In this document: positions 194 through 60,714 of the stretch, one piece after another | How the letters are laid out: each line of letters opens with the position of its first letter | How positions within the stretch are numbered: position 1 is the first letter of the stretch | DNA from: an uncultured Nitrospinota bacterium | GTDB lineage: Bacteria; Nitrospinota; Nitrospinia; Nitrospinales; JAJDAT01 | DNA: 64,000 bases | Reading direction: 5' to 3' | Assembly (NCBI GenBank): GCA_964344185.1 | Contig: CAYFMN010000005.1 | Coordinates: 65,516-129,515, forward strand | Position numbers and translations under genes: made by a program | The notes under the pieces: generated by a model | What the model was told of the DNA's origin: nothing | What the model saw: only the letters and a program-made list of their open reading frames with translations | Databases searched by the model: none

Positions 194-1321
194 ATGGACA
201 ATCAAACTATAAGGGAAGAGTTTCCCGTAGCGAAAAATAGAATATTTTTCGACCACGCTAAAGTCGCCCCAATTCCTAAAAGAACGCAAGAAGTTGTAAC
301 GGCCTTTGTTCAAGACTCTGCAAACTTTGGAACCGCTAATTACCCTGAGTGGATGGAAAAAGTCCAAAAAGTGCGAGAAAGCTTTGCGCTTTTAATAGGA
401 GCGCTGACCGAAGAAGTAGCCTTTGTGAAAAACACTTCGGAAGGATTGTCCATAGTCGCCAACGGAATTGATTGGAAATCCGGTGAAAATGTCGTCATAC
501 CAGACATTGAATTTCCCGCCAATGTTTATCCCTGGCAAAATTTAAAGCGACATGGAATAGAAACTCGGATGGTTTCTTGTCCAGACGGCAAGGTAGATTT
601 TGAAAAAATCGTCGAAGCTGTCGATGAAAAAACCCGGATTTTATCGATTAGTTCGGTTGAATGCAATAGCGGTTTTCGCAACGACTTAGCGCGCCTTGGA
701 GAGTTTTGCAAAAAAAAGGAAATTTATTTTTGCGTGGATGCTATCCAAAGTTTGGGCGCTCTACAAATAAACGTCAAAGATTACAACATAGATTTCTTAG
801 CCGCAGACGGACACAAATGGTTATTAAGCGTCGAAGGTTTAGGCGGTTTCTATATCAGTTCAAAGATGTTGGATAAAATATATCCCGTCGTTGTAGGTTG
901 GGACAGTATGGTCGACGCCTACAACTTCATGGACTACAATTTTACTTTTCGACCCGACGCTCGACGTTTCGAAGAAGGAACGTTCAACACCATGAGCATC
1001 CAAGCCTTTGGAGCTTCTCTTTCTATTTTCCATGAAATCGGTATGGAAACCGTAGAAACTCGCATTTTAGAGCTCGGTGATTATCTTATGGAGGAACTCA
1101 AAAAACGAGATCTACAAATTTACAATTCAGAAAAAACTAATGAACGCTCCGGCATCGTCGCTTTCTCTTTTGACGATCAAGATATCTTACAATTCATGAA
1201 CCAAAGAAAGGTGTCTCTTACGGTTAGAGACGGTCTTGTGAGGCTTTCGCCACACGTGTATAACACAAAAGAAGACGCTGACAAATTTTTCGAAATTTTA
1301 GACGATTATCTCTCGAGATAA
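194..1321 (+). CDS. class V (cysteine desulfurase / selenocysteine lyase-like) PLP-dependent aminotransferase
   Basis: 375-aa ORF with fold-type I PLP enzyme layout. The segment DFLAADGHKWLL carries the His-Lys PLP-lysine context typical of the class V family. Confidence 0.8.
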   Translation: MDNQTIREEFPVAKNRIFFDHAKVAPIPKRTQEVVTAFVQDSANFGTANYPEWMEKVQKVRESFALLIGALTEEVAFVKNTSEGLSIVANGIDWKSGENVVIPDIEFPANVYPWQNLKRHGIETRMVSCPDGKVDFEKIVEAVDEKTRILSISSVECNSGFRNDLARLGEFCKKKEIYFCVDAIQSLGALQINVKDYNIDFLAADGHKWLLSVEGLGGFYISSKMLDKIYPVVVGWDSMVDAYNFMDYNFTFRPDARRFEEGTFNTMSIQAFGASLSIFHEIGMETVETRILELGDYLMEELKKRDLQIYNSEKTNERSGIVAFSFDDQDILQFMNQRKVSLTVRDGLVRLSPHVYNTKEDADKFFEILDDYLSR

Positions 1322-1342: not shown

Positions 1343-1831
1343 TTACGCGTTTTTATCTATTTTAGGGTAGGACTCCATGTAAAGAATCAAATCCCGTAAA
1401 CATTGGTAAAACCTATTATAGGAATAGTAATGATATTTTCCTAAATCATCTCTAAACCAAACGACCTTTTGCTTTCCTATTGCGCTTCGATCATCAAGGT
1501 GCAATCCAGGTCGATTCCAATACGGATAAATTCCGATACTCAAAAAAGTCCACTTGTAGGCTAACAACGCCTGTTCGATCACGTTGCGGGGACCAACCGC
1601 TTCAGCGATATGAAGGTCTGCCGCCAACCCATCGTAATGCAAAGAATTTTCTGAATGCCCTGAAATAGCATATCCTCCGTTATTGTGTATATACATCGGC
1701 GAACCAACTTGCGACCTAAAAAGATCAAGTTTTAAAACAAATCCCAAACTCATATCAACTTCGCCTGAATAATTTTTTGGACGGAATTCGCTTTCCGAAA
1801 AATGTTTTACCTCCGACCAGTCAAATGACAT
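1343..1831 (-). CDS. peptidase M15A family zinc peptidoglycan peptidase (endolysin-like)
   Basis: Contains the SxHxxGxAxD motif (SLHYDGLAAD) and a distal H-x-D (GLHLDD). The ORF track extends to a TTG at 1846. I prefer the ATG at 1829-1831 (MSFDWSEV...), which is preceded by AGGAAAAG. Confidence 0.75.
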   Translation of the reverse strand: MSFDWSEVKHFSESEFRPKNYSGEVDMSLGFVLKLDLFRSQVGSPMYIHNNGGYAISGHSENSLHYDGLAADLHIAEAVGPRNVIEQALLAYKWTFLSIGIYPYWNRPGLHLDDRSAIGKQKVVWFRDDLGKYHYYSYNRFYQCLRDLILYMESYPKIDKNA

Positions 1832-1854
1832 AACTTTTCCTAACAATTTTATAG

Positions 1855-1912
1855 ACGTCCCTTACCCTTCAATAATGGGGAAAAGGCAAGGGACGTTCTA
1901 GTTTAGTGGCGG
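1855..1912 (-). promoter_or_regulatory. conserved hairpin + GTTTAGTGGCGG box element, copy 1 (between fibre-like gene stop and M15A peptidase start)
   Basis: Plus-strand arms ACGTCCCTTACC (1855-1866) and GGCAAGGGACGT (1885-1896) pair at 11 of 12 positions with an 18-nt loop. GTTTAGTGGCGG follows at 1901-1912. Read on the gene strand the order is CCGCCAC, then hairpin, then AGGAAAAG, then ATG. Confidence 0.5.
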
Positions 1913-1920
1913 AGGTTTTT

Positions 1921-4176
1921 TTAAGATTTAGCTTGCAATCCCCATGAATGGAGAAATTGATCCTTGCCTTGCATGGATTGATATCGACAACGCAAATCCT
2001 GGCCTGGAGTTTGCACGCTCAAGTCAACAATTCCACGGTAGATGCGGATATCGCCAGAAAGCGGCAATCCCTGTTGAATCATAGGAGCGACTGTCCATTC
2101 TGCCCCTCCATTTCGCGAAACATAGAATGTACCCGATCCATCGAAATCAGTATGCTCAATCCGCGACCAAAGATAACCTTCGGAAGGAATAAATCCAGGA
2201 TCGTAAGTTTTACTTCGAAGATCCATCGCGCCACGCTCAGAATCGTAATTTAAACGATATTGAGAAACTGAAGGATTTTGGGAAGAATTGTTTGAATAAA
2301 GAGTTATACCTCGAACAATTGAATTAACAGCGGTCGACCATCCTCCGGTTTCTTCCCATTGCTCATCTGTTATAGCCGCAAGGTTTGTTCCCGTCATACG
2401 GTTACCAGCTTGAGTTGCAATCGATTGGGATACTGCATGAAGCATGTCGTTAATCGTGGCTGCTGTTCCAGAGTATGTCGAACTGTTGCCGCTATCGTTG
2501 TTGTATTCCCATACGGTACCGTTCTTTTTAGCAATTACGCGCCACACATTATCGATCAAATTAAAGATCTTAACTTCCGTACCGTCTACAAAACCGGAAG
2601 CAGGATCGAATACCAACCAGTAATAAACATTTTGTAAATTGAGAGTTTCCGTAACCAACCCGTTATTGATATCGGACCAAGCGGATGTATCATTAGTTTG
2701 AATCTCAGAGTCGCAAATGGATACATACTCGTTGACCGGATTAAAAATTGCGCTTTCCATAATTTCTAATTCGGTTAATTGCAACCTACTTGGCGCCCCA
2801 TGATTTGCAGTCACATTCCACCTAAGGTACCTATAAGCTGTGGTATTATCAAAGGTATATGTGCGTTTTTCTAAAACGCTCCACATTGGCACATTGGTTT
2901 GAGTATCAAGAATATCCCAACTTGAATCGTTATTAGAGCCTTCAAAAGTCCAACTTTTTGCAGACTCGGTTTGAATTCGGTTTGGATCTCCATTCCAACA
3001 AACCATTGTATACTGGATAGGAATCATCGATTGACCTGCTCCCGCATCAACCTTAATCCAATCGGTTGAAGCCATTGAAACACAAGCTTGGTCGTTTCCC
3101 GTTAAATCGTTAAAGGCTCTTGAAGGCACATAGACCGAGTTTGCGTTACCTGCACTATAAGTTTTTCCTGGGGTGACGTCAGATCCAACTCCGGCGTCTA
3201 CTACATTTAGTTTTATGCTTTCGGAATCAAATTTCGTCAATGTAATAACATAATGGCTAGCGCCAGTTGTTCCCGAAAAATTGGAATACAACGTTAACGT
3301 ATTAGTTCCTTGACCGGCGCTAATATCATAATAAATTTCGTCGCTCGATTTAATCCTCCCATTGTCACAATTGGCCGGAAATGTTCCCGAAATTAAAGTT
3401 ACTTGATTGCTCCCATTAGTAAATGTTGCTAGCGAAGTATTCTGATTCACGTTGGTCCATTCTTGCTGTATATAGTTTGAATCAGTGTCGTAATTTTTAT
3501 CTGAGATTAGACCGATCCCTGGATTCGTTCCTTTGTACAGTTTATTAGTATTGTCATGTTGGTATCCGATAGAGTTTGCCTCGTCTGCTCCCTGTTCGTT
3601 TTCATTTGAAAAAGAATCCGACCAACCCGCTTCCATCAACAACGAACCGCCATGGTTCTCTTGAATTTCTTCAAACGCTCTCATGATATTGCTGGTATTC
3701 AATTCTGTTTGATCTTGATCAACTTTGGGATTGATCAATTGAAAATTGATTCCGTCATAAAACAAAAAACAAACAGCCTCAGATAAAATATCTCCTGGTT
3801 TTAGATTGCTCCCATCGGTTTTTTTTATCGCTTTGACGCCAAGAGAATTTACGTTCAAAGTTGCAGAGCCCGTATTTTGAACATGGGCTTTCATATGAAC
3901 CAGCAAGCCAGTATTTAATGCTGTCGGAGCAGGATTTAAAATAACTTCGTAAGCCGCTCCACTTCCAGTTGAATCCGCATGCCACAAAAAGCCATTTTGG
4001 GTATTTTGAGTTAAAGTAGTTATATCGGTCGAAAGAGTTCCCGTAGTCGCGTATAAATCGTTAATGTCCGTGTCAATGTCGACAAATGCGTCATTTAGCC
4101 GCACAACATCTTCTCTCAATTTATTATCGGCATGCGGTAATGGATAATTGCGATTAGAGGTTTTCTGGTCTATCAT
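1921..4176 (-). CDS. phage-tail-fibre-like modular protein with discoidin (F5/8 type C)-like central module (paralogue A)
   Basis: 751-aa ORF. The N-terminus (MIDQKTSNRNYPLPHADNKL...TLNVNSLGVKAIKK...YDGINFQL) resembles tail-fibre N-terminal regions. The central segment ending YRYLRWNV...LTELEI is discoidin-like. The N- and C-termini are clearly paralogous to 58807..60324 and 56895..58847, and both proteins end in the same ...DQFLHSWGLQAKS. Confidence 0.7.
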   Translation of the reverse strand: MIDQKTSNRNYPLPHADNKLREDVVRLNDAFVDIDTDINDLYATTGTLSTDITTLTQNTQNGFLWHADSTGSGAAYEVILNPAPTALNTGLLVHMKAHVQNTGSATLNVNSLGVKAIKKTDGSNLKPGDILSEAVCFLFYDGINFQLINPKVDQDQTELNTSNIMRAFEEIQENHGGSLLMEAGWSDSFSNENEQGADEANSIGYQHDNTNKLYKGTNPGIGLISDKNYDTDSNYIQQEWTNVNQNTSLATFTNGSNQVTLISGTFPANCDNGRIKSSDEIYYDISAGQGTNTLTLYSNFSGTTGASHYVITLTKFDSESIKLNVVDAGVGSDVTPGKTYSAGNANSVYVPSRAFNDLTGNDQACVSMASTDWIKVDAGAGQSMIPIQYTMVCWNGDPNRIQTESAKSWTFEGSNNDSSWDILDTQTNVPMWSVLEKRTYTFDNTTAYRYLRWNVTANHGAPSRLQLTELEIMESAIFNPVNEYVSICDSEIQTNDTSAWSDINNGLVTETLNLQNVYYWLVFDPASGFVDGTEVKIFNLIDNVWRVIAKKNGTVWEYNNDSGNSSTYSGTAATINDMLHAVSQSIATQAGNRMTGTNLAAITDEQWEETGGWSTAVNSIVRGITLYSNNSSQNPSVSQYRLNYDSERGAMDLRSKTYDPGFIPSEGYLWSRIEHTDFDGSGTFYVSRNGGAEWTVAPMIQQGLPLSGDIRIYRGIVDLSVQTPGQDLRCRYQSMQGKDQFLHSWGLQAKS

Positions 4177-4206
4177 TTTTTAGGTTCCTTTAAATACATA
4201 AAATCA

Positions 4207-4260
4207 TTTTTTGTCATTTAACAAGGGGGAAAAACAAAAAACGATTCAATTTTGTGGCGG
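4207..4260 (-). promoter_or_regulatory. hairpin + GTGGCGG box element, copy 2 (upstream of fibre-like paralogue A)
   Basis: TTTTTTGT (4207-4214) and ACAAAAAA (4234-4241) flank a 19-nt loop containing ACAAGGGGGAAAA. GTGGCGG lies at 4254-4260. This stem is weaker (A/T only) than in the other copies. Confidence 0.35.
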
Positions 4261-4646
4261 GGTTGTTTTATAAATTTTTTTCAATATTGTTTTCTGATGA
4301 AGAGTTTAAATATCCTTATATGGATATTAAAGATTATATTTTTATTTAAATTCATCATTAGTTTCTTCGGTTGATTAAATATAAGCCCTTACCTATTATG
4401 AAAAATTTAGGGTTCGGAATTAAGAAAACCTTTAAAATTAATGAGTTATAATAAAAAAAATAAAGGTAACCCGTCAAAATTGTCAATATTGAAACAATTT
4501 AAGAAAGAACTAAAGGAGGGACTATTATCAAAAACCGTTATAACTTAAAGTAAATGGAGAAATAACTTCATCGGAAAGAATTTTCCAAAAAACTCGTTAA
4601 GTTCAAGGTAGGAAATATGGAAGGATTCTTAAAATTATGCTTTTAA

Positions 4647-5615
4647 CTAAGTTTTTTGATTGGATTCCGCCTGGAAGGACACCAGTTCTGGCTTAAACGT
4701 TTTGAAGTAAAAAAAGACCCCAAACGCGGAAAGGAAAATTACAACAGCTCTAAGGAGCATCACCACTTCCGCCCCTTGGGCCGTGTTAAATAAGGAAAAA
4801 ATTTCAGATCCCACCGTGTCGCTAACTCCCAATCCTAAAGGAGTAACTGGAACAACTCTAGATAAAATAACAAAGGGCATAACGCAAGAAACAATAAGGG
4901 GCCCAATTAATGATCCAAACGTCATGAAACTAAAGTAAGCCGCAAAAATAACGCACACATGCCCCAAAATTGACAACAAAAGAGAAAGCGCTAAAGTCGA
5001 AAAATGATTACGATAACTTTGCATTGCTAACGCAAAATTAGCTACCGCATTGAATCGTTTTAAAAATGGCAGCTTTTTAAATCCTCTTCTGCTACATATC
5101 AAAGCTAATCCAATCACCGAAATAAATAAAAGTAAAACGCTAAACCATAAAAGGTATTCCAGGTTTTTCTGATTACCCTCCACAAACATAAAAATGGCTC
5201 CAGAGATTGGAGCAATAAGCATAAGACCAAGTAATCCAGCTGAGCGATCCATAATAATACTTGAAAGTATTAAACTCTTTCTGGACGCTAAGTTTTCACA
5301 CTTTGATAAATGATAAAATCGAATCGCTTCAATACCAAGACTACCTGGAACAAAGATATTAGCGAAATATCCCATAAAACCAAGATGCATCGTTTCAAAA
5401 AACGTTAAGTAAATGCCATGAGGACGCAGTAATAATTGCCAACGCAACAAGGTGATTATCAGCATAGCCAATTGGCCAATAAATACGCCAAGCAAAGGCA
5501 AACTAAATTGAAGCGTTAAAAACCTTTCAAAATCCAGACGATCAGAAGCCACAAGCCAATAAAGCAAACCCAAAGCGACCGCTAGCCGAAGTATATTTTT
5601 AATTATGGGATTCAT
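4647..5615 (-). CDS. polytopic membrane protein, UPF0104 / lysylphosphatidylglycerol-synthase-TM ('flippase-like') family
   Basis: 322 aa with about 8 hydrophobic spans. The N-terminal region (LAVALGLLYWLV...LRWQLLL) is typical of the family. It is the last gene of the minus-strand glycan operon and is paralogous in architecture to 54241..55281. Confidence 0.6.
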   Translation of the reverse strand: MNPIIKNILRLAVALGLLYWLVASDRLDFERFLTLQFSLPLLGVFIGQLAMLIITLLRWQLLLRPHGIYLTFFETMHLGFMGYFANIFVPGSLGIEAIRFYHLSKCENLASRKSLILSSIIMDRSAGLLGLMLIAPISGAIFMFVEGNQKNLEYLLWFSVLLLFISVIGLALICSRRGFKKLPFLKRFNAVANFALAMQSYRNHFSTLALSLLLSILGHVCVIFAAYFSFMTFGSLIGPLIVSCVMPFVILSRVVPVTPLGLGVSDTVGSEIFSLFNTAQGAEVVMLLRAVVIFLSAFGVFFYFKTFKPELVSFQAESNQKT

Positions 5616-5632: not shown

Positions 5633-6640
5633 TTAATTAACTCGCATACCGTATTTCTCTTTTTCGACAATAGAAAGCGTTTCTTCGATAGAGTTTCCTT
5701 TATCGCGGGCATTGAAAAGAATTTGGCCCACTTTCAGCCCGCCCGATTGCAACCTAACTATTGGTTCAACTCCTAGAGAAGAGAGAATAAGTCCCATATG
5801 TCCTGGTTCAGGTTCTTGCTCTGGGAGCCAACGCGTTTCAAAATAAGAACGATCAACATCTCCCCAAAGCTGGCAACATAACGGAGGTTTGCCAGGTAAG
5901 TTCAGCGACATAAGATCGAGATTTCCACCGGAAATAGAAGGAGTGTGGGCAAAAACAATTACATCGATGATATGGTCAGAAAAATTCGTTTGGTCCAGTA
6001 CATTAGCGCCCATTCCAGTAAGAGTTTTTCTTACATACGGGCCAAAATCATTATCAGAAATCAAAAGAATATTATTGCCAACAATCTCCAAGCCCGCTTC
6101 CAGTAAAGCTTGGGCAACTACTGGTCCTAGATATTCAAAAACTCCAATGTCTGGATGTCTTTCATTTGTTCCAGCTACAGGAATGCCATGTTCCTTGCAA
6201 GCGTCAAGAGAAACGTCTATTGGTCGAAATTCCCAAGCCTCGTACATAAGAGGAATAACACACCCCGCTTTCATTTTACTTATTTTATTAAAGTCTAAAG
6301 GTCGAAGATGGCCGCTATTAGTAACAATACATGCTTCTTCAAAACTTTTTTCGAGTTTTGCAGGGTCGTTTGTAATCACAAGAGTTTTCTGATTCAACGA
6401 TAAAACATCGGCGAAACTTAAAACATCGGCGCGAGCTTCCTCAAAAGAACCAAATTGACTATCTTTACCAAAAGCGATAACTTTTTCAGCGCCCGCTAAC
6501 AAAGCAATTATCGGAGTGCATGCATATATCCCAGTAGCGCATTCCGTAATAACAGTCATACCTTTCAAATCAATTTGCAAACGAGCGACAGCGGCTTCAA
6601 TCGAGCTTGTCATTCGGAAAAGCAAAAAATTATCTAGCAA
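5633..6640 (-). CDS. hypothetical protein (possible Rossmann-like two-domain enzyme) in the glycan operon
   Basis: 335-aa ORF whose start overlaps the stop of the upstream DegT gene by 7 nt, suggesting coupling. No family recognised. Confidence 0.55.
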   Translation of the reverse strand: MLDNFLLFRMTSSIEAAVARLQIDLKGMTVITECATGIYACTPIIALLAGAEKVIAFGKDSQFGSFEEARADVLSFADVLSLNQKTLVITNDPAKLEKSFEEACIVTNSGHLRPLDFNKISKMKAGCVIPLMYEAWEFRPIDVSLDACKEHGIPVAGTNERHPDIGVFEYLGPVVAQALLEAGLEIVGNNILLISDNDFGPYVRKTLTGMGANVLDQTNFSDHIIDVIVFAHTPSISGGNLDLMSLNLPGKPPLCCQLWGDVDRSYFETRWLPEQEPEPGHMGLILSSLGVEPIVRLQSGGLKVGQILFNARDKGNSIEETLSIVEKEKYGMRVN

Positions 6641-7911: not shown

Positions 7912-8903
7912 TTTCGCCCAACTTCCAATTGGTTTAATTTATCGATTCCAAAAGGATGATTGCGAAAATAATTGATCGTTTGATCCAAGCCTGTTTCAAA
8001 ATCTGTCTGCGGAAGCCAGTCGGAAAATTGCATAAATGCAGACGGGTCGGAATAAAGCCGTAAAACGTCTCCAGGTCGGTCGTCGGTAAATGTCATCTTT
8101 ACGTCTGGATTACCAACCTTTTCAACCAATTTTTCTGCCAAATCTTTTATAGAGATTTCAAATCGGCTGCCAATATTAAAAACTTTGCCTGTCATTTTTT
8201 CAGACTCTGCCGCGGCGATCAAACCTCGGGCCGTATCTTCTACGTAGGTAAAATCCCTGGTTTGACTACCATCTCCAAATATCAGTATTTCTTTACCGCC
8301 CAAAGCTCGCACGATAGACTTTGGAATCATCTCTCCAGAATCACCCTCGTAATGTGAACGAGGACCATACGTATTGAAAGGTCTAATCACCATCGTGTTC
8401 ATTCCATAAGTTTCATGGTAGGCCAAAGTGTACTTTTCGCCGGCAAGTTTACTTGCTCCATATACTGTTGACGGCTTTGTCGGATGATTCTCGTCCATTG
8501 GAACTGTTTCAGCCGTTCCATAAACTTCCGAACTAGAACAATAAATAAGCCGTTCCACTCCAACTTGTCGAGCAGCTTCGCAAATCATTAACGTTCCTGT
8601 TCCATTGGTTCGCTGGTTTTCTAAAGGAAAGGAGAGAGAATGACGCACGCCAAGGCAAGCCAGATGAAACACAATATCTATATCCGCTAAAGCGATACTA
8701 GCGTCTTTTTGATCCGCAACGTCTCCTTCAATGAATTCAAAATTTTGATTACCCTCATGATGCACTATATTTGAGTGTTTTCCATTGCTCAAATTATCGA
8801 GGACTCTAACTCGGCAACCTTTTTCCATTAATTTATCTACAAGGTGCGAACCAATGAAACCTGCTCCGCCTGTGACTAAACAATGCTTTTCTTGAAGCGA
8901 CAT
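7899..8903 (-). CDS. NAD-dependent nucleotide-sugar epimerase/dehydratase (extended SDR)
   Basis: Has VTGGAGFIGSHLV (Rossmann GxxGxxG) and catalytic YGASKLAGE (YxxxK). The ORF track starts at 8957. I prefer the ATG at 8901-8903 (MSLQEKHCLVTGG...), which removes the overlap with the upstream acetyltransferase stop at 8909. Confidence 0.85.
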   Translation of the reverse strand: MSLQEKHCLVTGGAGFIGSHLVDKLMEKGCRVRVLDNLSNGKHSNIVHHEGNQNFEFIEGDVADQKDASIALADIDIVFHLACLGVRHSLSFPLENQRTNGTGTLMICEAARQVGVERLIYCSSSEVYGTAETVPMDENHPTKPSTVYGASKLAGEKYTLAYHETYGMNTMVIRPFNTYGPRSHYEGDSGEMIPKSIVRALGGKEILIFGDGSQTRDFTYVEDTARGLIAAAESEKMTGKVFNIGSRFEISIKDLAEKLVEKVGNPDVKMTFTDDRPGDVLRLYSDPSAFMQFSDWLPQTDFETGLDQTINYFRNHPFGIDKLNQLEVGRNWKI

Positions 8904-8908
8904 TTTAA

Positions 8909-9391
8909 TTATCCGGTTTCTACGTTTTTCAAAAATCGAGCTGGGGTACCAACCCAAACTTGCGATGGAGGAACATCCTTAGTTACTACGCTACCCGCTC
9001 CTATAATCGCTTTCTTTCCTATAGTAACGCCGCACATAATCGTTACACTGGAACCTATTGAAACTTCGTCTTCCACGACTATTGGCACGACAGACCAATC
9101 TGCATCAGTTTGCATAGATCCATCGGGATTGGTAGCCGCTGGATATTTATCGTTTATAAAGGTAACATTGTGACCAATAAAAACTCGATTATGAATCGTC
9201 ACTCCCTCGCAAATAAAACTGTGACTGGAAATCTTGCAGTCGGCGCCAATAGAAGCTCCCTTTTGGATTTCAACGAAAGTACCGATTTTTGTGCGATCGC
9301 CGATTTCGCACCCATAAGCGTTAACAAAGTTATAGATCTTTACATCCTTGCCTAACTTAACGTCTTGGGCAATTCCCTGAAACATTTCCAT
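8909..9391 (-). CDS. left-handed beta-helix (hexapeptide-repeat) sugar N-acetyltransferase, WbpD-like
   Basis: 160 aa with repeated [LIV]G-x4 hexapeptide pattern (IGDRTKIGTFVEIQKGASIGADCKISSHSFI...). Confidence 0.8.
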   Translation of the reverse strand: MEMFQGIAQDVKLGKDVKIYNFVNAYGCEIGDRTKIGTFVEIQKGASIGADCKISSHSFICEGVTIHNRVFIGHNVTFINDKYPAATNPDGSMQTDADWSVVPIVVEDEVSIGSSVTIMCGVTIGKKAIIGAGSVVTKDVPPSQVWVGTPARFLKNVETG

Positions 9392-9455
9392 GAAATTTCT
9401 CTCAATTTACCAAGGTTAGGGAAATATCCATTTCAAAAAAGGTTCTAACAATACG

Positions 9456-10457
9456 CTAAACTTCGACTGGAGCTCCGCCAAGTTTTAAAGATTTATCCGC
9501 CGCTTCAAGAGTTTTAACAACTCGCAGACCGGTGGTCGCGTCATTGATCGGCTTTGTTCCATTTTCAATAGAATCCAAAAATTCAGCAACTTCCACCCCT
9601 AAAGCTTCTTTTTGAGGTATTACAGGAACATACATATCGCCAATACGATACTCTGCGATCATATCTAAACCTTCGTCATGGCTTTTCATCTCTACGCCCT
9701 TGTTATAAATCTTAATGGCTTCTTCTTTTTCCAGGTCGTTCCACACTAACATCTGTTTGCTACCGCCTAAAATCGTTTTACGAACTTTGACCGGCGATAG
9801 CCAGTTAACGTGAGCATGTGCCAAAAGATTATCGCCATAATCTAAGGTCAAAAACGCCACATCTACCATTTTATTGTAATGAGAACTACCGGTTGCGCTA
9901 ACTGTCTTGGGGGAAGATCCAATTAGGTAATTCATTATAGAAAGATCGTGAGTTGCAAGATCCCAAAGAACATTAACGTCATGCTGGAATAACCCTAAGT
10001 TAATACGAACGGAATCAAAGTAAAGCAAGTCGCCAAAATCTTCATGGTCAATATATTTTTTGATCATCCTAACCGGATTGGTGAATAAAAAGGTATGATC
10101 AACAATGGCGACAAGTCCAGATTTGTCCGCCAATTCAACAATTTCTTCGGCTTGCTTGGCATTGGAGGCAATGGGTTTTTCAATCCAAACGTGCTTCCCA
10201 TTTTTCAAAGCGTTTATTGCAAATTCATAATGAGTATGGACAGGGGTAGAAATAACCACAATGTCAATATCTTTACCTTCGGTGACCGCTTTGGCGTCGT
10301 CTGTTATCTCTGTATGGGGGTGGAAACGTTGCGCTTCCTTTCGACGTTTTTCTCTTAAATCCGCAATCCGTAATAACTTAACTTTCTGGTTTGCTTGAAA
10401 ATTCCTGGCCAAGTTTGGCCCCCAATATCCATATCCTATTAAACCAACACGAAACAT
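9456..10457 (-). CDS. Gfo/Idh/MocA family NAD-dependent sugar oxidoreductase, WbpB-like
   Basis: 333 aa with N-terminal Rossmann segment VGLIGYGYWGPNLARN and the EKP motif (VWIEKPIA). Confidence 0.8.
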   Translation of the reverse strand: MFRVGLIGYGYWGPNLARNFQANQKVKLLRIADLREKRRKEAQRFHPHTEITDDAKAVTEGKDIDIVVISTPVHTHYEFAINALKNGKHVWIEKPIASNAKQAEEIVELADKSGLVAIVDHTFLFTNPVRMIKKYIDHEDFGDLLYFDSVRINLGLFQHDVNVLWDLATHDLSIMNYLIGSSPKTVSATGSSHYNKMVDVAFLTLDYGDNLLAHAHVNWLSPVKVRKTILGGSKQMLVWNDLEKEEAIKIYNKGVEMKSHDEGLDMIAEYRIGDMYVPVIPQKEALGVEVAEFLDSIENGTKPINDATTGLRVVKTLEAADKSLKLGGAPVEV

Positions 10458-19193: not shown

Positions 19194-19284
<91 letters not shown>

Positions 19285-31221: not shown

Positions 31222-32247
31222 TTGTTAACCAAACTTAACCTTCGAGATTTTTTGTCTCGAAGGTTTTTTTATGGAGATGAAGTGATGGCTGTTTTATGCG
31301 ACTTTATTGGGAAATCGGAAAATTTGTCTAATATTTATAAAGAAAAACATATGGAGGTTGATAGCTTTAAATTAACAAAAAATAATAAGTTTAAAGCAAT
31401 AAGTAATTACGATCTTGGAATAAATTTTGTTCAACAAGAATACACGGAAAATAATCAATTTACTTCAGAAGCCGTAGTGAGGGAAGACACGGCAGTTCTA
31501 GCTTGGGGAAAATGGCCTAAAAATTGCGAAAATGGTCGAATTAGTTTCGACTCTGGAAAAAACTTTTTTTACATCATTTCGCGCGAATCAGATAAAAAAT
31601 TGATTTTAGATGGAGTCCCACGAAAAGGAAAGTTTGGTTATTCTATCCGCTTAACTGAATTTGATTTAGGAGAAGTCAAACTTTGCGCGAATAGAAGTTC
31701 TAATTTGAAATTTGAAGAATGGTCGATCAGTTTAGATGAAATTTCTAAAAATGTAGCGAATGAATATGTATCAGTTAGCGATGCCAAAGCTATTTCGACA
31801 GTAACCTGCTCTAATGTAGTTTCCGCTTCAGTCGTGGAAAATAAAGACGCGGAAAGTGTTTATTACTGGTTGGTCTTCTATCTACATCCAAATATCGATG
31901 AAAATGCAGAAGTAAAAATTTTTAACAAAGAGAATAAATTATGGAGAATAATAGCTAGAAGCAGAGCCGGCTTTTGGGAATATAACAATTCGCCTAACGC
32001 TAAAACGGAAACTTGGGTTTTAGCGTCGGCAAATGATTTTCTTCATGCTGTTTCTGAAGCTATATCTTCAAAAAAAGTAAATAGAATGGCAGGAGAAGAT
32101 TTAGTCGGAATAACAGAACAGGAGTGGAGTTTACTGAACGGTAGCTTGGTAGAAGCCGAATACTTTTCTAAAGGCATTACGTTAAATTCCGCAGATCCTA
32201 AAAATAATCCAGCCGTGTCTCAATTTTGCCTGGATTGTGAAAAATAA
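31222..32247 (+). CDS. truncated, diverged paralogue (B) of the tail-fibre-like family, lacking the conserved N- and C-terminal domains
   Basis: Shares several blocks with paralogues A and C: NFVQQEYTEN...WPKNCENGRISFDSG...IRLTEFDLGEVKL, EYVSVSD...VYYWLVF...AEVKIFNKENKLWRIIA...WEYNN, and NDFLHAVSEAIS...NRMAGEDLVGITEQEW...KGITLNS...NPAVSQF. The TTG start sits only 3 nt after AGGAGG, so the true start is uncertain. This may be a gene remnant. Confidence 0.55.
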   Translation: MLTKLNLRDFLSRRFFYGDEVMAVLCDFIGKSENLSNIYKEKHMEVDSFKLTKNNKFKAISNYDLGINFVQQEYTENNQFTSEAVVREDTAVLAWGKWPKNCENGRISFDSGKNFFYIISRESDKKLILDGVPRKGKFGYSIRLTEFDLGEVKLCANRSSNLKFEEWSISLDEISKNVANEYVSVSDAKAISTVTCSNVVSASVVENKDAESVYYWLVFYLHPNIDENAEVKIFNKENKLWRIIARSRAGFWEYNNSPNAKTETWVLASANDFLHAVSEAISSKKVNRMAGEDLVGITEQEWSLLNGSLVEAEYFSKGITLNSADPKNNPAVSQFCLDCEK

Positions 32248-32321
32248 TTGCGCGTCATTCAAAAGAATTTGTCAGATTAGCGGTAAGCCAAAATAATGTT
32301 TCAAGGAAAATTTTTTCGAGT

Positions 32322-32714
32322 TTAACTATTTTCAAGGATAACTTTTTGAATGGTTGGAATTACTTCTTTGATGCTGAGAGGTTTACTAATAAAACCGTTC
32401 ATCCCTGCGTCAAAACAATTTTGCTGATCGCTTTTATCTTCATTGGCGGTCATGGCAATGATTGGGGTTAGTTTTTTCGACGTTTCTTTTTCTAAGCGGC
32501 GGATTTCCCTAGTCGCCTCTAACCCATCCATTTCAGGCATTTGCATATCCATTAAAATTGCGTCGAACTCATTTTTTTGAAACTCTTCGAGAGCCAGTTT
32601 GCCATTTTCGACGGCAACGACATTATGTCCTTTCCGGGTGAGCAACTTTGTCGCTAGGGTTAGATTCAATGGGGTATCGTCGACTAACAATAGTTTTAAG
32701 TTTTCTTGGTCCAT
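32322..32714 (-). CDS. stand-alone response-regulator receiver (CheY-like) protein
   Basis: 130 aa with LLVDD, phospho-acceptor context [12 protein letters not shown], and the T (AMTA) and K (SKP) motifs. Confidence 0.85.
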
Positions 32715-32843
32715 GGCGGCAATTTATTAATAAAAAATAAGCAATTTTAAAGTTAAAAAATTTAATTCGAATTGCTCCCTAATGTTAACACGGGTTTGAA
32801 GGAAGTTGATTGAAAAAACCAACTTTAAAAAATAGAAATAAAG

Positions 32844-33740
32844 TTAGAATGATTTCCAAGCGCCAATTATTCTACCCACTACTGGGTCGGGATATTCTTT
32901 TAAGTTTACGATTTGAATTTGTGCGGAGGGGTTAAGAGGTCGAAGAATCAAGAAACTTTTTCCCACTTCTACATATTTTGCCGTTAAGCCATTTTCATGA
33001 AAGATTGCGTACATTTGATTTTTTTCTATGGTTTTATCATTTCGGTCAATAATTACTATGTCTCCCGAGTGTAATGTAGGTTCCATAGAATCTCCTTCAA
33101 CACGGCTGGCTACAAGGTTATTACGTCGACCTGTGGCGCGGGTATGTAATAAGACATAGTCTTCGATATTCTCATGCTGAATGATGGGTTGTCCCGCCGC
33201 AATAGAAGAATCGGTTAGAGGAATTGAAATATAATCTTCTTGGTTAATTGCGGGGCCTCTTTGATCCGGATAGCTATTGTAAACTTTTAGCTGAGGAAGA
33301 ACTCGCTCTGATTCAGGTTTATCGTCGGTTAATATATTTTGAATTGAGGTTCCCAAACTAGTGCAAATTTTATTTATTAATTCTGTCGAAAATGACCAGG
33401 TCCCTTTTTCATAAAACTCCAAAGAAAGTTCGGGAATATCGATTTTTTGAGCGAGTTTTTTAACGGAAAACCCTTTTTGTTCTCTCAAATTCTTAATCTT
33501 CTTTGCGATTTTTTTATCCCATTGAGAAGATGACTTTTTGCCTGTCAGGAGCCAATTGAAATCCGCATGAAAATATGAAGAAATAGTCAACAATATTTCA
33601 GAAGATGGAACCGTTCTCCGCTGTTTCCATTTTTTAAGAGTGTCGTAGTTAAGATCGGTAACCTGCGAAAAAGATCGCAGAGAATTCCCTTCCAATAATT
33701 GAAAAAACCGATCAAAAATTTCCCCACCATTAAGCTTCAT
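32844..33740 (-). CDS. LexA/CI-like autocleavable repressor: two N-terminal HTH domains + S24 peptidase domain
   Basis: 298 aa. Carries two Cro/CI-XRE-type HTH segments (...LRSFSQVTDLNYDTLKKWKQ... and ...GFSVKKLAQKIDIPELSLEFYEKG...), an Ala-Gly cleavage-site context IAAGQP, and S24 motifs GDSMEPTL (Ser) and GLTAKYV (Lys). Confidence 0.8.
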   Translation of the reverse strand: MKLNGGEIFDRFFQLLEGNSLRSFSQVTDLNYDTLKKWKQRRTVPSSEILLTISSYFHADFNWLLTGKKSSSQWDKKIAKKIKNLREQKGFSVKKLAQKIDIPELSLEFYEKGTWSFSTELINKICTSLGTSIQNILTDDKPESERVLPQLKVYNSYPDQRGPAINQEDYISIPLTDSSIAAGQPIIQHENIEDYVLLHTRATGRRNNLVASRVEGDSMEPTLHSGDIVIIDRNDKTIEKNQMYAIFHENGLTAKYVEVGKSFLILRPLNPSAQIQIVNLKEYPDPVVGRIIGAWKSF

Positions 33741-54240: not shown

Positions 54241-55281
54241 TTAAGCCATTTCTTTTTCGGATTGTTCGCTTATCTCGGTAAGTTGACTGGGAGAAAGATG
54301 ATCGGTCAGAATATAATAAATTCCGATAGCGCTAACGATGCCCATATTTAAGGCCCATAGAACCATTCCATAGCTTAAAGCCACCACTTCGTTTTCTCCC
54401 ATAATATGATGGAGCGCCACAGATACGCCTAAATGGAAGGAACCAACAAATCCAGGAGTTGGGAATGCCGCAATGAAAATACAGACCATCACCAACAAAA
54501 TACCCACGGATTCAGGCGATTTATCTTGAAGGTCAAATGCCCAATATAGTGGGTAGTAACTTAATGCGACCAAGAACCAAACGACAGCAGAATAAAAAGT
54601 GATTTTAATGAGGGAATTTTTGTCTTTAACAACTTCGAGTCCTTGATTAAATTTCTCAATCAAAGTTTGAATTTTTTCTCCCCATCCATCCGGCAGTATT
54701 TTAGAAATCCAGGTAATTATTTGGGCAACTAAGTTTTTTTGAAAACACATCATGTAGACAAAGACCGTTAAAATAACAGCCCCAGCACATCCTAAGACCC
54801 CAAATTTAAAAGCGAGTTCGTCTAATGTCATTCCTGAAAACTTGGCTTCCGAGCTAAAAATATGGGAGTTAAAAAGCAATAGCCAGCAAAACAAACCCAT
54901 CAACATAAAAGTATCAAAAATACGTTCCACGACAATAGAAGCAAACGCTCCAGGAAAAGGAACTTCTTCGCGTTTGGCTAATAAGTAAGCTCTGATAAAT
55001 TCTCCGGCCCGAGCGGGTAACATATTTCCCATAAATCCAATCATCAATGGCGATAAAATTTGCGAAGTTTTAACTTCTTTAATAGGGGATAGCAAAATTT
55101 TCCAGCGAATACCGCGAACCGCAAAACTCACGACGACCAGAATGCCCGCCGGTATTAAATAAATAAAATTAACGTCTGAAAAAGAGTCCAAAAGCTCCTT
55201 TAACGAAACGTTTCGAAAAGTAAAATAGATGGCAAGGATGGCGACAACTACGCCAATAATGAATTGTTTTAGGTTTTTCAA
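54241..55281 (-). CDS. polytopic membrane protein, UPF0104 / 'flippase-like' family (second copy in window)
   Basis: 346 aa with ...FRNVSLKELLDSF....Y......L...SF..RG.RWKILL... and 8 hydrophobic spans. Confidence 0.6.
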   Translation of the reverse strand: MKNLKQFIIGVVVAILAIYFTFRNVSLKELLDSFSDVNFIYLIPAGILVVVSFAVRGIRWKILLSPIKEVKTSQILSPLMIGFMGNMLPARAGEFIRAYLLAKREEVPFPGAFASIVVERIFDTFMLMGLFCWLLLFNSHIFSSEAKFSGMTLDELAFKFGVLGCAGAVILTVFVYMMCFQKNLVAQIITWISKILPDGWGEKIQTLIEKFNQGLEVVKDKNSLIKITFYSAVVWFLVALSYYPLYWAFDLQDKSPESVGILLVMVCIFIAAFPTPGFVGSFHLGVSVALHHIMGENEVVALSYGMVLWALNMGIVSAIGIYYILTDHLSPSQLTEISEQSEKEMA

Positions 55282-56320: not shown

Positions 56321-56547
56321 TGATCACAATTTAGATAGGCCAATCTTTATATTTGGAATAGTATCCAACCTCAAAAAGGGTGTCAACAAAGATACTTGGG
56401 GCAGAATTCTTAAAAAATAATGCCAATGAGAGTATTTTATTAAAAGACAGCTGATAATGCCAATTTTTAAGTCGCTATTGCGCTAAAAAAAACAGTTTGT
56501 TAGAATTAGATATTATTTCATTACAATTTCCCAGAAAAGGAAACGTT

Positions 56548-56826
56548 ATGTTCGATATTGGGTTTTTCGAATTAATGATTATTATGGCAATCGGCGTGGT
56601 TGTTATTGGACCGAAAAACCTGCCTAAATTGGCCCGCGCAATAGGCAAAGGTTGGGGAGAGTTTCAGTCGACCTTTAATGAGCTTAAAGACGATATAATG
56701 GAAGAAGCGGACAATTTAAAGGGCACCGTTAATGTCGATCAACTAGAACAAGACGTTTCCGCCGCAACCAAAGTAGATGTCGACGTTAATTTAAGCGACA
56801 TTAACGATACGCCCAAAGCTACTTAA
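56548..56826 (+). CDS. twin-arginine translocase TatA/TatB-family subunit
   Basis: MFDIGFFELMIIMAIGVVVIGPKNLPKLARAIGKGWGEF, a TM helix with Gly-Pro hinge and amphipathic helix. The N-terminus is like E. coli TatB (MFDIGF). The ATG at 56548 is preceded by AAGGAAA. The ORF track starts at 56497. Confidence 0.8.
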   Translation: MFDIGFFELMIIMAIGVVVIGPKNLPKLARAIGKGWGEFQSTFNELKDDIMEEADNLKGTVNVDQLEQDVSAATKVDVDVNLSDINDTPKAT

Positions 56827-56894: not shown

Positions 56895-58847
56895 TTAAGA
56901 TTTAGCCTGTAATCCCCACGAGTGTAAGAATTGGTCTTTACCTTGCTCCGTTTCATAACGACAACGTAAATCTTGGCCGGATGCCTGACCAGTTATGTCA
57001 ACAGTTCCACGAAAGATATGCTGATCTCCAATCAACGGAAGACCTTGTTGGGTCATAGGAACGGATGTCCATTCGGAACCGCCGTTTCTGCTGACGTAGA
57101 AATTTCCTGGTCCATCTGAATCAGAATGTTCAATTCGCGACCAAATGTAACCTTCAGATGGAATGAATCCAGGATCATAAGCTTTACTGCGCAAATCCAT
57201 ACCGCTGCGCACAGAGTCGTAATTCAAGCGATATTGGGCTACGAAAGGATTTTGAGAAGAATCGTTAGAGTAAAGCGTTACTCCACGGACTACTGAATTG
57301 ACTGAGTTGGACCATCCGCCGGATTCTTCCCATTGTGCGTCCGTGATAGCCGCGAGATTGGTTCCTGACATGCGATTAGCGGCCTGCACTGAAATAGCTT
57401 GCGATACAGCGTGAAGCATTTCGTTGGTTTCGGCTTGTACGCCGGTGTAATCGTTTGCAGCGCTGCTAATATAGGTATGTGGACTCGTTGGAGGCGTAAA
57501 GTTTGAAGTCCACAGTGCGGATTTAGTAAAACGCACTTCATCGAGCCAACCGTCAAAATAATTTCCGGAAGGGGTCGCAAGAGGTTTAGTGCCTAAGAAT
57601 AATTTACTGCTGCTATGGACGCCACAATCTGCGTCGCCTAAAGGACCGCTGGTAACTTTTAGGATTCCATCTTCAAATATTCTATATAATCGTCCTTGTC
57701 GTACAAACGCTATATGGTACCACTGGCCCGTGGCGAGCGTGGATTCTCTGGTAAAATGAAAACTAAAATTAGTGTGAGAAGGATGAGCATAAGTTAATTG
57801 ATATATATTTCCACTCGCATTAAAGATTTCCCAAGAATCATTTGCAGAATCACCAACCCCTAAAATATTTGATCCTCCACTTGTAGTATTAAACCTAATC
57901 CAAAAATCGATTGTGAAATCATTAGCACCGAAAGAAAAATCGTCCGAAGCAGAATCGGATCGGATATAATCTCCTGTTCCGTCAAACAATAGCGACGATC
58001 CTCCGAACTTACTTTGCGTAGTGTCTATCTGAGCGTTGCCGTAAGTTGTAAAAGCATGTCCTGAAGGTCCGTTATCAATAATTGTTGTACTTGCATCAGC
58101 GCCGTCCCCATGAATCAACAGTTTCGTTGTGTCGTGGATTGCATTGTTATATTCCCAAGTACTGCCATTATTCTTAGCGATAGTTCTCCAAACGGAGCCA
58201 TCTTGGTTGAAGATTTTAATTTCGGTTCCGTCTCCAAAATTGGAAACAGGGTCGAGAGCTAACCAGTAATAGACACTTTGAGAATTAAGCGTTTCTGTAG
58301 CCGAGCCGCTATTAATATCTGACCAAGAGGATGTATCTGTCTTCTGAATTTCAGAATCGCACAGTGAAACATATTCAGAGGCTACGTTTGTCTGATCGGC
58401 TATTAATTCAATTTCGTGAATTCTGCAGTAATCTTGACTCCAAACGGCTGTTATCACGAGGTAATACCACCGAAAATTAGTACTATTAGAAAACGGAATG
58501 GCGGTCATTGGCCCAACTGTAACTGAATCTTCAGAATCATAAATTACTTCTGGAAAATTTGTTTCTGTATGCAATGACGTCGCCCCATTAGCTATTGGAT
58601 TTTGATTTTCTATTGGAGTTGTATTGGATCCGTAGATTTTAAAATCTTTCAAGGAACCTCCACCACTATCCGCAGAACTGTTCAGAACAATTTTGTTAAC
58701 TTTTCGAGCCTCTCCAATATCGATTGCAACCCACCTTAGATCTCCGCCTGTTGATATGCTATACCAAATTGCTGATTCTGTTGATGCACTATCGTTGTCT
58801 ATAGCCTTAGAACCGCCTCCAGTCGGAATGTGCGTTAGAATGAACAA
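56895..58847 (-). pseudogene. tail-fibre-like family paralogue C, downstream (C-terminal) reading frame: discoidin-like + LamG-like + conserved C-terminal modules
   Basis: 650-aa frame with no plausible independent N-terminus. It continues the alignment to paralogue A exactly where 58807..60324 stops. The LamG/ConA-like module (...FGGSSLLFDGTGDYI...FTIDFWIRF...WYHIAFV...LDEVRF) is encoded at about 57482-58142. The C-terminal 250 aa are highly similar to paralogue A. Confidence 0.6.
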
Positions 58848-60324
58848 ACGCGCTTCCAGGGCTAGTTAGATCCCCCGAACTTGGATGGTGATTAAGTTGC
58901 ACAAAACCAGAATCAAACTCGCTCATTCGAATTATGTAGTCAGATGTTCCATTAGCCGCTATGGAAGCCAGAGTCAGCGTCGTGTCTGAGTCTCTGGAAA
59001 GAATATTGTGCCAGCTAGAACCGGAATCAAAACTAATACGACCGCCCGCGCAATTAGTGGGAAAGACACCTGACGATAGTGAAACGGTTGAATTACTTTC
59101 TGTAAATATTTTGAACCATCTATCGTGGCTGGTATTTGATGTAGTAAGCGGGGCAATAGCGGAGCCATCTGCATAAATCGAAGGCGTTGTAGAATCTTGA
59201 TTCCAATAGTTTGAAGCGTCGAAAGAACCGGTTCTACTAATAACGACACAATAATAAGTTCCAGCGTTAACGGTGTATCTTTCACTTCCAGAAAATTGAA
59301 AAGTTACTTCTTCATAAGAAGTTCCTATGGCGCTTCCGCTAACTGTATCAGAAGTCGCTAACAGGGTACTGCCGGCTCCTGTTGCGCTTTGCGGACTTAA
59401 GTTATATAAATAACCTATGAGGTCGTCTGTTGGAGATCCGACTTTTTTTAATTTAAAAACGAATTTATCTAAAATACCGGTAGATTTACAAAGAAATGAT
59501 TGACCGGTATTATCTTGTCCTGCGGCAGTGCCCACAGTCGTGTCTGTGCCGCCTATGAAACTACTTTGATCAACTGATGAAATTTCTATTACTGTAGCTT
59601 GAGATGTTGATTGATTAGAGTTCGTCCATTCCTGTTGAAGATAATTAGATTCTGTATCGTAATTTCTATCAGAAATTAAATTAGTTCCAGGATCGGTTCC
59701 TTTATAGAGCTTGTTTGTGTTGTCATGTTGAAAGCCGGTGGAGTTTGCCTCGTCCGCTCCTTGTTCGTCTGGATTGGAAAAAGAATCGGACCATCCCGCT
59801 TCCATCAGCAACGCTCCGCCATGATTTTCCTGAATCTCATCAAACGCCCTCATGATATTACTTGTATTGACGGAAGTCTGTTCGTTGTCTGTCGTTGAAT
59901 TTGCCAATTGGAAATCGGTTCCGTCGTATACTAAAGTCACTATTCCACTTTCAGGAATATCGCCTTGCTTCAAATCGCTTCCGTCAATTTTTTTTATGCT
60001 CTTTACTCCCAATGAGTTAACGTCGCCGGTGGCGGGACCTGTGTTTGTTGTATGAGCTTTCATGTAAACAAACAAACCCTCGCTCAAAACTGTGGGAGCG
60101 GGATTCAAAGTTACGTTATAAGCCGCTCCAGAGCCGGTGGAATCCGCAAACCAATAAGCGCCTGCCTGAGTGTTTTGATTTAGTTGATCGGCTGATGTAT
60201 ATAAATCGTTTACATCTATATCGATCTTGTCAAAAGAATCTTTGATTCTGGTAACGTCGTCCTCCAGCATATTGTCGGGATGAGGCATTGGATATTCGCG
60301 ATTTACGGTTTTTTGATCGATCAT
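58807..60324 (-). pseudogene. tail-fibre-like family paralogue C, upstream (N-terminal) reading frame
   Basis: 505-aa frame. The first roughly 245 aa are highly similar to paralogue A (MIDQKTVNREYPMPHPDN...SNYLQQEWTN). A paralogue-specific insert of about 170 aa (about 59070-59589) precedes the shared FPTNCAGGRISFDSG...SEFDSGFVQLN block. The frame overlaps the downstream frame by 41 nt. Confidence 0.6.
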
Positions 60325-60348
60325 ATTGCTATTTCCTTTGAGTATGAA

Positions 60349-60404
60349 ATCGCCCCTTGTCTTTTATTATCAAAAATACAAGGGGCGATGTGGTTAAGTG
60401 GCGG
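60349..60404 (-). promoter_or_regulatory. hairpin + AAGTGGCGG box element, copy 4 (upstream of paralogue C)
   Basis: ATCGCCCCTTGT (60349-60360) and ACAAGGGGCGAT (60378-60389) form a perfect 12-bp stem with a 17-nt loop. GTGGCGG lies at 60398-60404. On the gene strand the order is CCGCCAC, 8 nt, hairpin, AAAGGAAA, ATG. Confidence 0.5.
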
Positions 60405-60714
60405 AAACGTTTAAGGAAAATTTTTAAAAATTTAAAATTGCAAAAATCTGTTCTTAGAAACAAGACTTGGCTAAATCAAATTATTAAAAATTTCCATAAG
60501 ATAAATAAAAAAAATCTTTTTCGAGCTTTAGAAAATTAAAGTCTAGTTGAGATATTTTTAAATACTCCCTTATATATTGCAGGAAATTTAGGTAAGATTT
60601 TTTTAACTCATTGAAACTTAAGAGAAAATAATAATAAAAGGAGAGGTATGGGCAGAAAAGTTGAATGAATTGGGAAGGGATTATTAATTTATGATTTGCT
60701 AAAAACTTGCCTTT

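Follow-up and report, generated by a model that had tools for sequence, protein, structure and literature searches.

Bacteriophage layouts that combine tail-fibre and lysin genes are well known, as are phage genes that have been domesticated by bacteria. The stretch analysed here, 64,000 nucleotides of a contig from an uncultured Nitrospinota bacterium (the window, taken at its full length), contains a fibre-like gene (paralogue A, encoding fibre A) directly followed by a gene for a putative zinc peptidase, with a conserved hairpin-bearing leader element in the spacer between them. The best explanation, in which we have moderate confidence, is that the locus represents a host-maintained, phage-derived array of zero to five fibre genes capped by a terminal LAS/M15A peptidase gene, and that the window carries the one-fibre version of this array.

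The closest described counterparts of the peptidase are the M15A/Peptidase_M15_3 endolysins of phages, for example those of Burkholderia phage ST79 (PMC5025407) and of the Faecalibacterium phages FP_Taranis and FP_Brigit. Like the window protein, these are small single-domain LAS zinc peptidases with an H-x6-D ... H-x-D motif and no signal peptide, and their genes stand after tail fibres or in phage modules, the phage copies being followed by a small membrane open reading frame (ORF). The window peptidase differs from deposited phage proteins in sequence (28–33% identity, and below the Pfam threshold) as well as in setting, since its gene is chromosomal, lacks a holin, occupies a fixed locus and is under purifying selection in several genomes. 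A second parallel is type 10 secretion by ChiX/ChiW in Serratia marcescens (PMC4259817, PMC5778951), where the host likewise owns a LAS zinc peptidase that lacks a signal peptide and is encoded beside signal-less proteins of extracellular type; however, no holin or spanin gene is adjacent in the window, and secretion of the fibre is a proposal here. Furthermore, ChiX and Ply500 have a D-x-x-H motif (D120 and H123 in ChiX; PMC5778951), whereas the window peptidase has H-x-D, with a proline three residues before H111. The third parallel is provided by satellite loci of the Rhodobacter capsulatus gene transfer agent (GTA; RcGTA) and of tailocins, in which host-kept phage receptor-binding genes and a lysin are found by a variable surface-glycan locus; a groundwater relative (L021, a metagenome-assembled genome of Nitrospinota) offers a link to RcGTA-type tails, and an analogous pairing of tailocin fibres with surface-glycan variation has been described for the O-antigen (PMC12208367). 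The marine Nitrospinota clade that includes the window differs from these systems in that no structural genes of a particle were seen, up to five fibre genes occur in tandem, and the junctions between the genes carry a dedicated intercistronic leader.

In the marine clade (GC content 37–40%), the peptidase gene is always placed tail-to-tail with the same class-V aminotransferase gene, which in the window is separated from the peptidase stop codon by 21 nucleotides. What lies upstream of the peptidase varies. One fibre gene is present in the window, at least one in L017, where the contig ends, two each in L001 and L018, and five on a 1.18-Mb contig (L076/L077), encoding proteins of 1103, 1270, 742, 756 and 779 residues. 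L019 has HisF/HisH-like genes instead of fibre genes and an intact peptidase; L009 has an acetyltransferase gene in the place of fibres, and a peptidase with a premature stop and a G58V replacement. The preliminary description of this DNA had made its reading depend on the gene pair being conserved in relatives, which is borne out by five of the seven marine loci (1, 2, 2, 5 and at least 1 fibre genes) but not by L019 and L009, where the peptidase is found without a fibre.

The adjacency is found also in the distant groundwater lineage of Nitrospinota, at another chromosomal locus. In L021 (GC content 60%), two fibre-like genes are followed by a gene for a peptidase 65% identical to that of the window, and the three genes directly follow a tail module of RcGTA/phiJL001 type (L021 12..4981) with a PF09931 + PF09356 hub, NlpC/P60, Phage-tail_3 + Rcc01698_C and DUF2793 components; convergent response-regulator and S24 repressor genes come after the peptidase. 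Since the pair is adjacent in two lineages with different flanks, the arrangement is recurrent, though not universal. No counterpart of the RcGTA-type tail proteins of L021 was found in the window. The L021 tail module itself could be part of a prophage or of a GTA-like element.

Six intact chromosomal orthologues of the peptidase, including that of the fibre-less L019, show pairwise ratios of non-synonymous to synonymous substitution rates (dN/dS) of 0.03–0.10 at dS values of about 0.7–2.8, and the gene is thus maintained under strong purifying selection and is not decaying. The L009 gene (9866..10342) is more divergent (dN about 0.2) and interrupted: it has an in-frame stop at about codon 142, the otherwise invariant G58 is replaced, and the gene caller reports only a 96-residue product.

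The spacer between fibre A and the peptidase holds one copy of a leader that consists of CCGCCAC-WWAA, a hairpin of 12–15 bp and an AGGAA ribosome-binding site. The window contains exactly three copies, each situated 80–84 nucleotides 5' of the ATG of fibre A, of a second fibre gene (paralogue B) or of the peptidase (Table 1). In the relatives, the leader is found at every fibre–fibre and fibre–peptidase junction of the two- and five-gene arrays (L001, L018, L077), whereas the first gene of a multi-gene array lacks it, as does the peptidase gene of fibre-less genomes. The preliminary description had placed a hairpin/GTGGCGG element in the spacer, rather than a terminator with a run of T, and had set the 162-residue reading frame 89 nucleotides downstream of the fibre gene on the same strand. 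Both statements are correct, the latter to the nucleotide: CCGCCAC is read on the minus strand (GTGGCGG on the plus strand) at 1906..1912, a strong hairpin follows at about 1852..1900, and a T-run is absent. A 106-nucleotide stretch at the spacer folds at −28.8 kcal/mol (z = −4.4; none of 200 shuffled sequences as good), and RNAalifold on eight leader copies yields 15 pairs, seven of them with compensatory double changes. The element is not a terminator remnant, and no Rfam family matches the spacer or the leader. On the coding strand, the two sigma-70-like sites (4486..4448) are located only upstream of fibre A. In the most economical reading of these data, the fibre and peptidase genes form one transcription unit, which has a conserved hairpin in leader or intercistronic position and ends with the peptidase cistron.

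Two other interpretations of the leader were considered and set aside. The core CTCCGCCAC was examined as a duplicated 3' end of tRNA-Ser(GGA), i.e., as part of an attachment (att) site; however, the 9-nucleotide match is no better than expected by chance (E = 7.2) and is equalled by many others. The core CCGCCACTAAA presumably recalls promoters of T3/T7-type phages. None of the phage contigs L010, L040 and L037 contains the element, and a promoter for a phage RNA polymerase is a low-probability speculation only.

The peptidase reading frame most likely begins at the ATG at 1831, since an AGGAAA ribosome-binding site lies 6–8 nucleotides 5' of this codon and all orthologues start at the equivalent methionine, each beginning with M[ST][FL][DN]W. 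An alternative TTG start at 1846 would give a 167-residue ORF (1343..1846, minus strand) with five additional residues. Seven codons before the TTG there is an in-frame stop, which leaves no room for a hidden N-terminal signal. In agreement with the earlier view of the protein as signal-less, neither a signal peptide nor a transmembrane helix was detected: the highest Kyte–Doolittle mean over 19 residues is 1.01, and there is no lipobox and no twin-arginine motif. The motifs that had suggested an M15A enzyme are both present, SLHYDGLAAD at residues 63–72 and GLHLDD at residues 109–114. Standard family models do not return this label, however. The protein has no Pfam match even at E ≤ 10 and does not reach the gathering threshold of PF08291 (Peptidase_M15_3), no NCBIfam model matches even at E ≤ 1, and a single-sequence search of PDB chains gave nothing; among PHROG, Pfam and NCBIfam-type models, only PHROG 894 ('endolysin') matches (E = 1.4e-6).

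The M15A assignment is supported instead by profile and structure evidence. A family profile of 29 sequences finds the N-domain of Sonic hedgehog (Shh; E = 1.3e-4) and 1lbu, the zinc D-Ala-D-Ala carboxypeptidase of Streptomyces albus and M15A holotype (E = 2.6e-3), in the PDB; the match of the same profile to ChiX is not significant (E = 0.39). Distant homologues bear PF08291 or PF05951, and seven of the 29 relatives match PF08291 weakly. Matches among the 50 nearest cluster representatives, all of them weak, are to PF05951 (33), PF08291 (26) and the Hedgehog N-domain (2). An initial AlphaFold model that drew on 15 close homologues reached a predicted local distance difference test (pLDDT) value of 62.7 and gave meaningless Foldseek matches; it was replaced by a second one, based on the 29-sequence alignment with its distant homologues, with a pLDDT of 92.5 and a predicted template modelling (pTM) score of 0.87. 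For this model, Foldseek returns Hedgehog N-domains and 1lbu at probability 1.0 and template modelling (TM) scores of 0.41–0.46, with Ply500, MepA and LysB4 as weaker matches, as well as 24 phage proteins at E ≤ 1e-3 (best 2e-7, TM-scores 0.5–0.6), many of which are named 'Peptidase M15A, C-terminal'. The predicted fold is that of the LAS group, which has a central antiparallel sheet with helices packed against it; the TM-scores are moderate throughout (0.41–0.60). His65, Asp72 and His111 are invariant in the alignments of 29 and 50 sequences, which reach members of PF08291 and PF05951; H65-x6-D72 and H111 are the predicted zinc ligands, in keeping with the triad H-x(3-6)-D ... H of the superfamily. 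H59, S63 and D113 are nearly invariant, and the predicted metal and active-site set (H59, H65, D72, H111 and D113) is complete in the window protein. Transitive homology and the predicted fold together carry the superfamily assignment, by which the 162-residue protein is predicted to be an M15A-type LAS zinc peptidase of a divergent clade that current models miss.

The Hedgehog N-domain, the bacterial Hedgehog-like DD-peptidases and 1lbu are the best PDB matches by both profile and fold, and the segment GH-S-x-x-SLHY-x-G-x-A-x-D is nearly identical to HSEESLHYEGRAVD of Shh. A relationship between Hedgehog and M15A has already been published (PMC6027127, PMC8052667). The window protein differs in that the TM-scores to these structures are low, the H-x-H pair is missing (G-L-H-L-D-D), and there is neither a secretion signal nor evidence for a calcium site; the resemblance reflects a shared superfamily, not signalling.

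The close family of the peptidase is small. In a set of 5.8 billion proteins it comprises about 19 clusters (90% identity), with 'hypothetical protein' as the only product name, and those members that name an organism are metagenome-assembled genomes of Nitrospinota. With one genome per species for 185,579 species, seven loci were found, all of them in Nitrospinota. Of 1.84 billion cluster representatives, three match at E ≤ 1e-30, and a wider halo comprises 176 with E ≤ 1e-10 and 797 with E ≤ 1e-3. Nitrospinota and phage-like contigs are the only sources of the close family.

Fibre A consists of an N-terminal adaptor of phage type, a shaft region, a central discoidin-like lectin domain and a conserved C-terminal domain; no signal peptide and no transmembrane segment were found in it. 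It is matched by a PHROG tail protein (E = 7.9e-19), with further PHROG matches at the N-terminus, and its central module has a weak Pfam match to F5/8 type C where paralogues have LamG. A profile of the fibre family matches the solved 'gp47 Tail fiber' 9b45 (E = 1.3e-7). The closest viral relative is an 845-residue protein on the IMG/VR contig L040, with 46% identity over residues 64–326 of fibre A and 62% over residues 483–750 (the C-terminal 268 residues); its gene stands at the end of the structural genes of that contig, whose other products include a virion structural protein, an amidase and a tail protein. The T7-type tail fibre of contig L037 is 30% identical over the same two regions. 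Scanning viral contigs with the single fibre sequence gave nothing; an alignment-based scan succeeded and detected fibre-related domains in 36 IMG/VR viral contigs. On these sequence comparisons, the 751-residue protein is a true homologue, along most of its length, of the tail fibres of co-occurring phages.

The marine fibres share the phage-type N-terminal adaptor (MIDQKT.NR.YPLPH...) and have no signal peptide. The two fibre-like proteins of the groundwater lineage (L021 5154..7448 and 7933..9765) begin with Sec-type signal peptides, MKKFKLWTAIIFLSIPVLAWA... and MQKIGIWFSWIAVFLISVLG..., respectively. One fibre domain family thus has two targeting solutions, a phage-type adaptor in the marine clade and a Sec-type signal in groundwater.

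Copies of the peptidase on the phage side support the phage-derived origin that had been proposed for the family. On the phage-like contig L010 (GC content 29%), a 77%-identical peptidase is encoded between primase/helicase and HNH endonuclease genes, beside DNA polymerase A, a placement that we take to recall that of T7 gene 3.5; an ORF for a 49-residue transmembrane protein (5956..6105, Kyte–Doolittle mean 2.66) overlaps the peptidase stop. In the Nitrospinales loci L005–L007 (L022 being the same contig), the peptidase is followed by a 61-residue ORF with a hydrophobic N-terminus (L005 2807..2992). On these phage-like contigs, the two small ORFs are by sequence candidate holin- or spanin-like partners, and neither has a counterpart in the window. 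On the T7-like contig L037, a fibre gene and two small ORFs precede a more distant phrog_894 M15 peptidase, and the nearest deposited phage proteins are, by annotation, endolysins of Faecalibacterium phages (32% identity, E = 3e-7). The annotated endolysin relatives, the copy in a phage module with its membrane mini-ORF, the 62% identity of the fibre to a phage-contig protein and the gene order of L037 all support descent from a phage. The homologues in L010 and L037 are accompanied by small or membrane ORFs; around the window copy, neither a membrane ORF nor phage genes are found.

Fibre A and the peptidase form the end of a variable island (from about 1.3 to 19.2 kb of the window) that extends from tRNA-Ser(GGA) to the aminotransferase gene and contains DegT, epimerase, hexapeptide transferase and GFO/IDH genes, i.e., genes of sugar modification and glycan biosynthesis; the glycan-biosynthesis part spans about 17 kb. 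A conserved tRNA cluster ending in tRNA-Ser(GGA) bounds the variable region both in the window and in L009, where the island (8634..10336) holds a single acetyltransferase gene and the decaying peptidase. What lies between the tRNA and the aminotransferase gene is thus a replaceable island, and no direct-repeat att site was found there. The fibre and peptidase genes show no compositional anomaly (GC content 0.40–0.41, compared with about 0.39 for the window).

Table 1 Coordinates of the fibre–peptidase locus and related features in the window
Feature	Position	Strand	Remarks
Class-V aminotransferase gene	194..1321	+	Convergent to peptidase; core-genome anchor in all marine relatives
Putative zinc peptidase gene	1343..1831	−	162-residue ORF; stop codon 1343..1345; last cistron of unit in the simplest reading
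Spacer between fibre A stop and peptidase ATG	1832..1920	−	Exactly 89 nucleotides; holds leader element
Leader copy 5' of peptidase	1832..1917	−
Fibre-like gene (paralogue A)	1921..4176	−	ORF of 751 residues
Leader copy 5' of fibre A	4177..4260	−	CCGCCAC 4254..4260, 12-bp hairpin, AGGAA ribosome-binding site, ATG at 4176
tRNA-Ser(GGA)	19194..19284	−	Far boundary of variable island
Truncated fibre-family fragment	31222..32247	+	Beside convergent response-regulator and S24 (LexA/CI-like) genes
Paralogue B plus leader	56895..60409	−	Two overlapping ORFs
Leader copy 5' of paralogue B	60325..60409	−

The window holds two further members of the fibre family. In paralogue B, two ORFs in different frames (58807..60324 and 56895..58847), overlapping by 41 nucleotides, stand where relatives have one gene of about 1100 codons; the split is either that of a frameshifted pseudogene or an assembly error. 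Paralogue B has a leader (CCGCCAC at 60398..60404) and a 3' terminator with a T-run, and is not followed by a peptidase. Its neighbours are a gene for a ShlB/FhaC-type two-partner-secretion transporter upstream (60715..62481, minus strand) and, on the 3' side, a small convergent ORF (56497..56826, plus strand) whose N-terminus, MFDIGFFELMIIMAIGVVVIGPKNLP..., looks TatA/TatB-like by eye. Genes of the LPG_synthase_TM family are found both near fibre A (4647..5615) and near paralogue B (54241..55281). The other member is a 341-residue fragment in a region (31222..33740) close to dnaA that also has a response-regulator/S24 pair as in L021 (50% identity) and no peptidase, which suggests an older, eroded copy of the fibre–peptidase module.

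In the explanation that we favour, a Nitrospinota phage would be the source of the unit, which would correspond to its tail-fibre/lysin end and would later have been taken over by the host. One transcript would cover the fibre array and the peptidase, or the shared leader would regulate them together. Made in the cytoplasm, the peptidase would cut murein peptide stems or cross-links, and could do so only after a breach of the inner membrane, caused by a holin encoded elsewhere, by an infecting phage or by membrane damage; the cut would then let the signal-less, lectin-bearing fibres, or particles carrying them, exit the cell.

Several observations weigh against this explanation. No holin, spanin or other phage gene was found beside the peptidase at the window locus; the holin search returned no ORF with a hydrophobic span on the coding strand between 1321 and 4646 and no hydrophobic mini-ORF in the flanks. 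L019 has an intact, conserved peptidase with neither a fibre gene nor a CCGCCAC leader, and that the enzyme has been kept there indicates that it is useful independently of fibres. If the leader hairpin terminated transcription, which is conceivable even in the absence of a U-tract, the genes would be uncoupled. The groundwater fibre-like proteins are Sec-signalled, and lysin-assisted release is thus not the general logic of the pairing. The pair is not obligatory, and the window locus has neither a holin gene nor any other phage gene; the retained function in lysis or penetration that the preliminary description had raised can therefore only be inferred. A more far-reaching version is improbable in our view, namely a host-owned release system for soluble phage-type receptor-binding proteins in which the fibres, encoded beside the variable surface-glycan island of the cell itself, accumulate in the cytoplasm, the lysin opens the murein on membrane breach and the shared leader switches all components on, the fibres then coating the matching glycans of kin and blocking phage adsorption, or joining phage or GTA-like particles.

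The main competing explanation, which we consider unlikely but would take most seriously, is that the peptidase is an independent cytoplasmic host enzyme, for example a D-Ala-D-Ala dipeptidase similar to VanX and DdpX or an enzyme of muropeptide recycling, and that the fibres are mere neighbours at the edge of the island. Cytoplasmic M15 enzymes exist, as exemplified by VanX and DdpX, and the lack of an export signal fits such a location; the peptidase also holds a fixed position while everything upstream of it varies, and L019 retains it intact, under equal constraint, with no fibre gene. An independent enzyme would, however, leave several features unaccounted for, i.e., the occurrence of two fibre genes and the peptidase at another locus in a distant lineage, the fibre-specific leader in front of the peptidase, and the 77%-identical copy in a phage module with a membrane mini-ORF after it. 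Furthermore, a distribution of seven loci among 185,579 species, all in Nitrospinota, would be odd for a recycling enzyme.

In Rhodobacter capsulatus, the tail-fibre and lysis genes of RcGTA are unlinked from the main cluster, and the array and lysin of Nitrospinota could likewise be satellite loci of a GTA-like or tailocin-like particle whose head and tail genes are elsewhere in the genome. We regard this as rather doubtful. The position of the L021 genes directly after an RcGTA/phiJL001-type tail module, the phage-type N-terminal adaptor kept by the marine fibres and the alternative receptor-binding domains within one array beside a glycan island are what such a particle would predict; yet neither the 64-kb window nor the marine loci examined contain phage structural genes, the L021 fibre-like proteins have signal peptides, unlike virion proteins, and an array of five fibre genes would be unusual for one particle.

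That the locus is an inert, decaying prophage remnant is very unlikely. Several features do point to such a remnant, in that paralogue B is frameshifted, a truncated fragment remains at 31222..32247, a premature stop interrupts the L009 peptidase and further phage genes are missing from the neighbourhood; against these stand the dN/dS values of 0.03–0.10 at saturated dS in six intact orthologues, the conserved position, leader and active site, and a base composition equal to that of the host. Finally, a housekeeping periplasmic murein endopeptidase of the MepK (YcbK, DUF882/PF05951) type, which belongs to the same superfamily and to whose family the neighbouring clusters show their weak matches, is a most improbable identity for the window protein, since this has no PF05951 match, no Tat or Sec signal or room for one, a very narrow taxonomic range and copies in phage contexts, and neither the grouping with MepK nor the overlooked export signal against which the preliminary description had cautioned was found.

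Nitrospinota carry out much of the nitrite oxidation in the ocean, and to our knowledge almost nothing is known about their phages and cell-surface biology. What is less ordinary about the locus is the combination of an expandable set of fibre genes, zero to five in number, that ends with a lysin gene, a dedicated leader that covaries, and a fixed site by a variable glycan island. The locus indicates that Nitrospinota exchange tail-fibre and lysin genes with their phages. Next to the genes for their own variable surface glycan they maintain receptor-binding-type lectins in an array that can expand, and the last gene of this array, which they conserve, encodes a putative signal-less murein peptidase. 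The peptidase clade is placed between Peptidase_M15_3, DUF882 and the Hedgehog N-domain, where current family models miss it. The locus offers a testable handle on phage–host recognition in a clade dominated by uncultured members, and it may represent protein release of the holin/lysin type beyond the examples from enterobacteria and clostridia.

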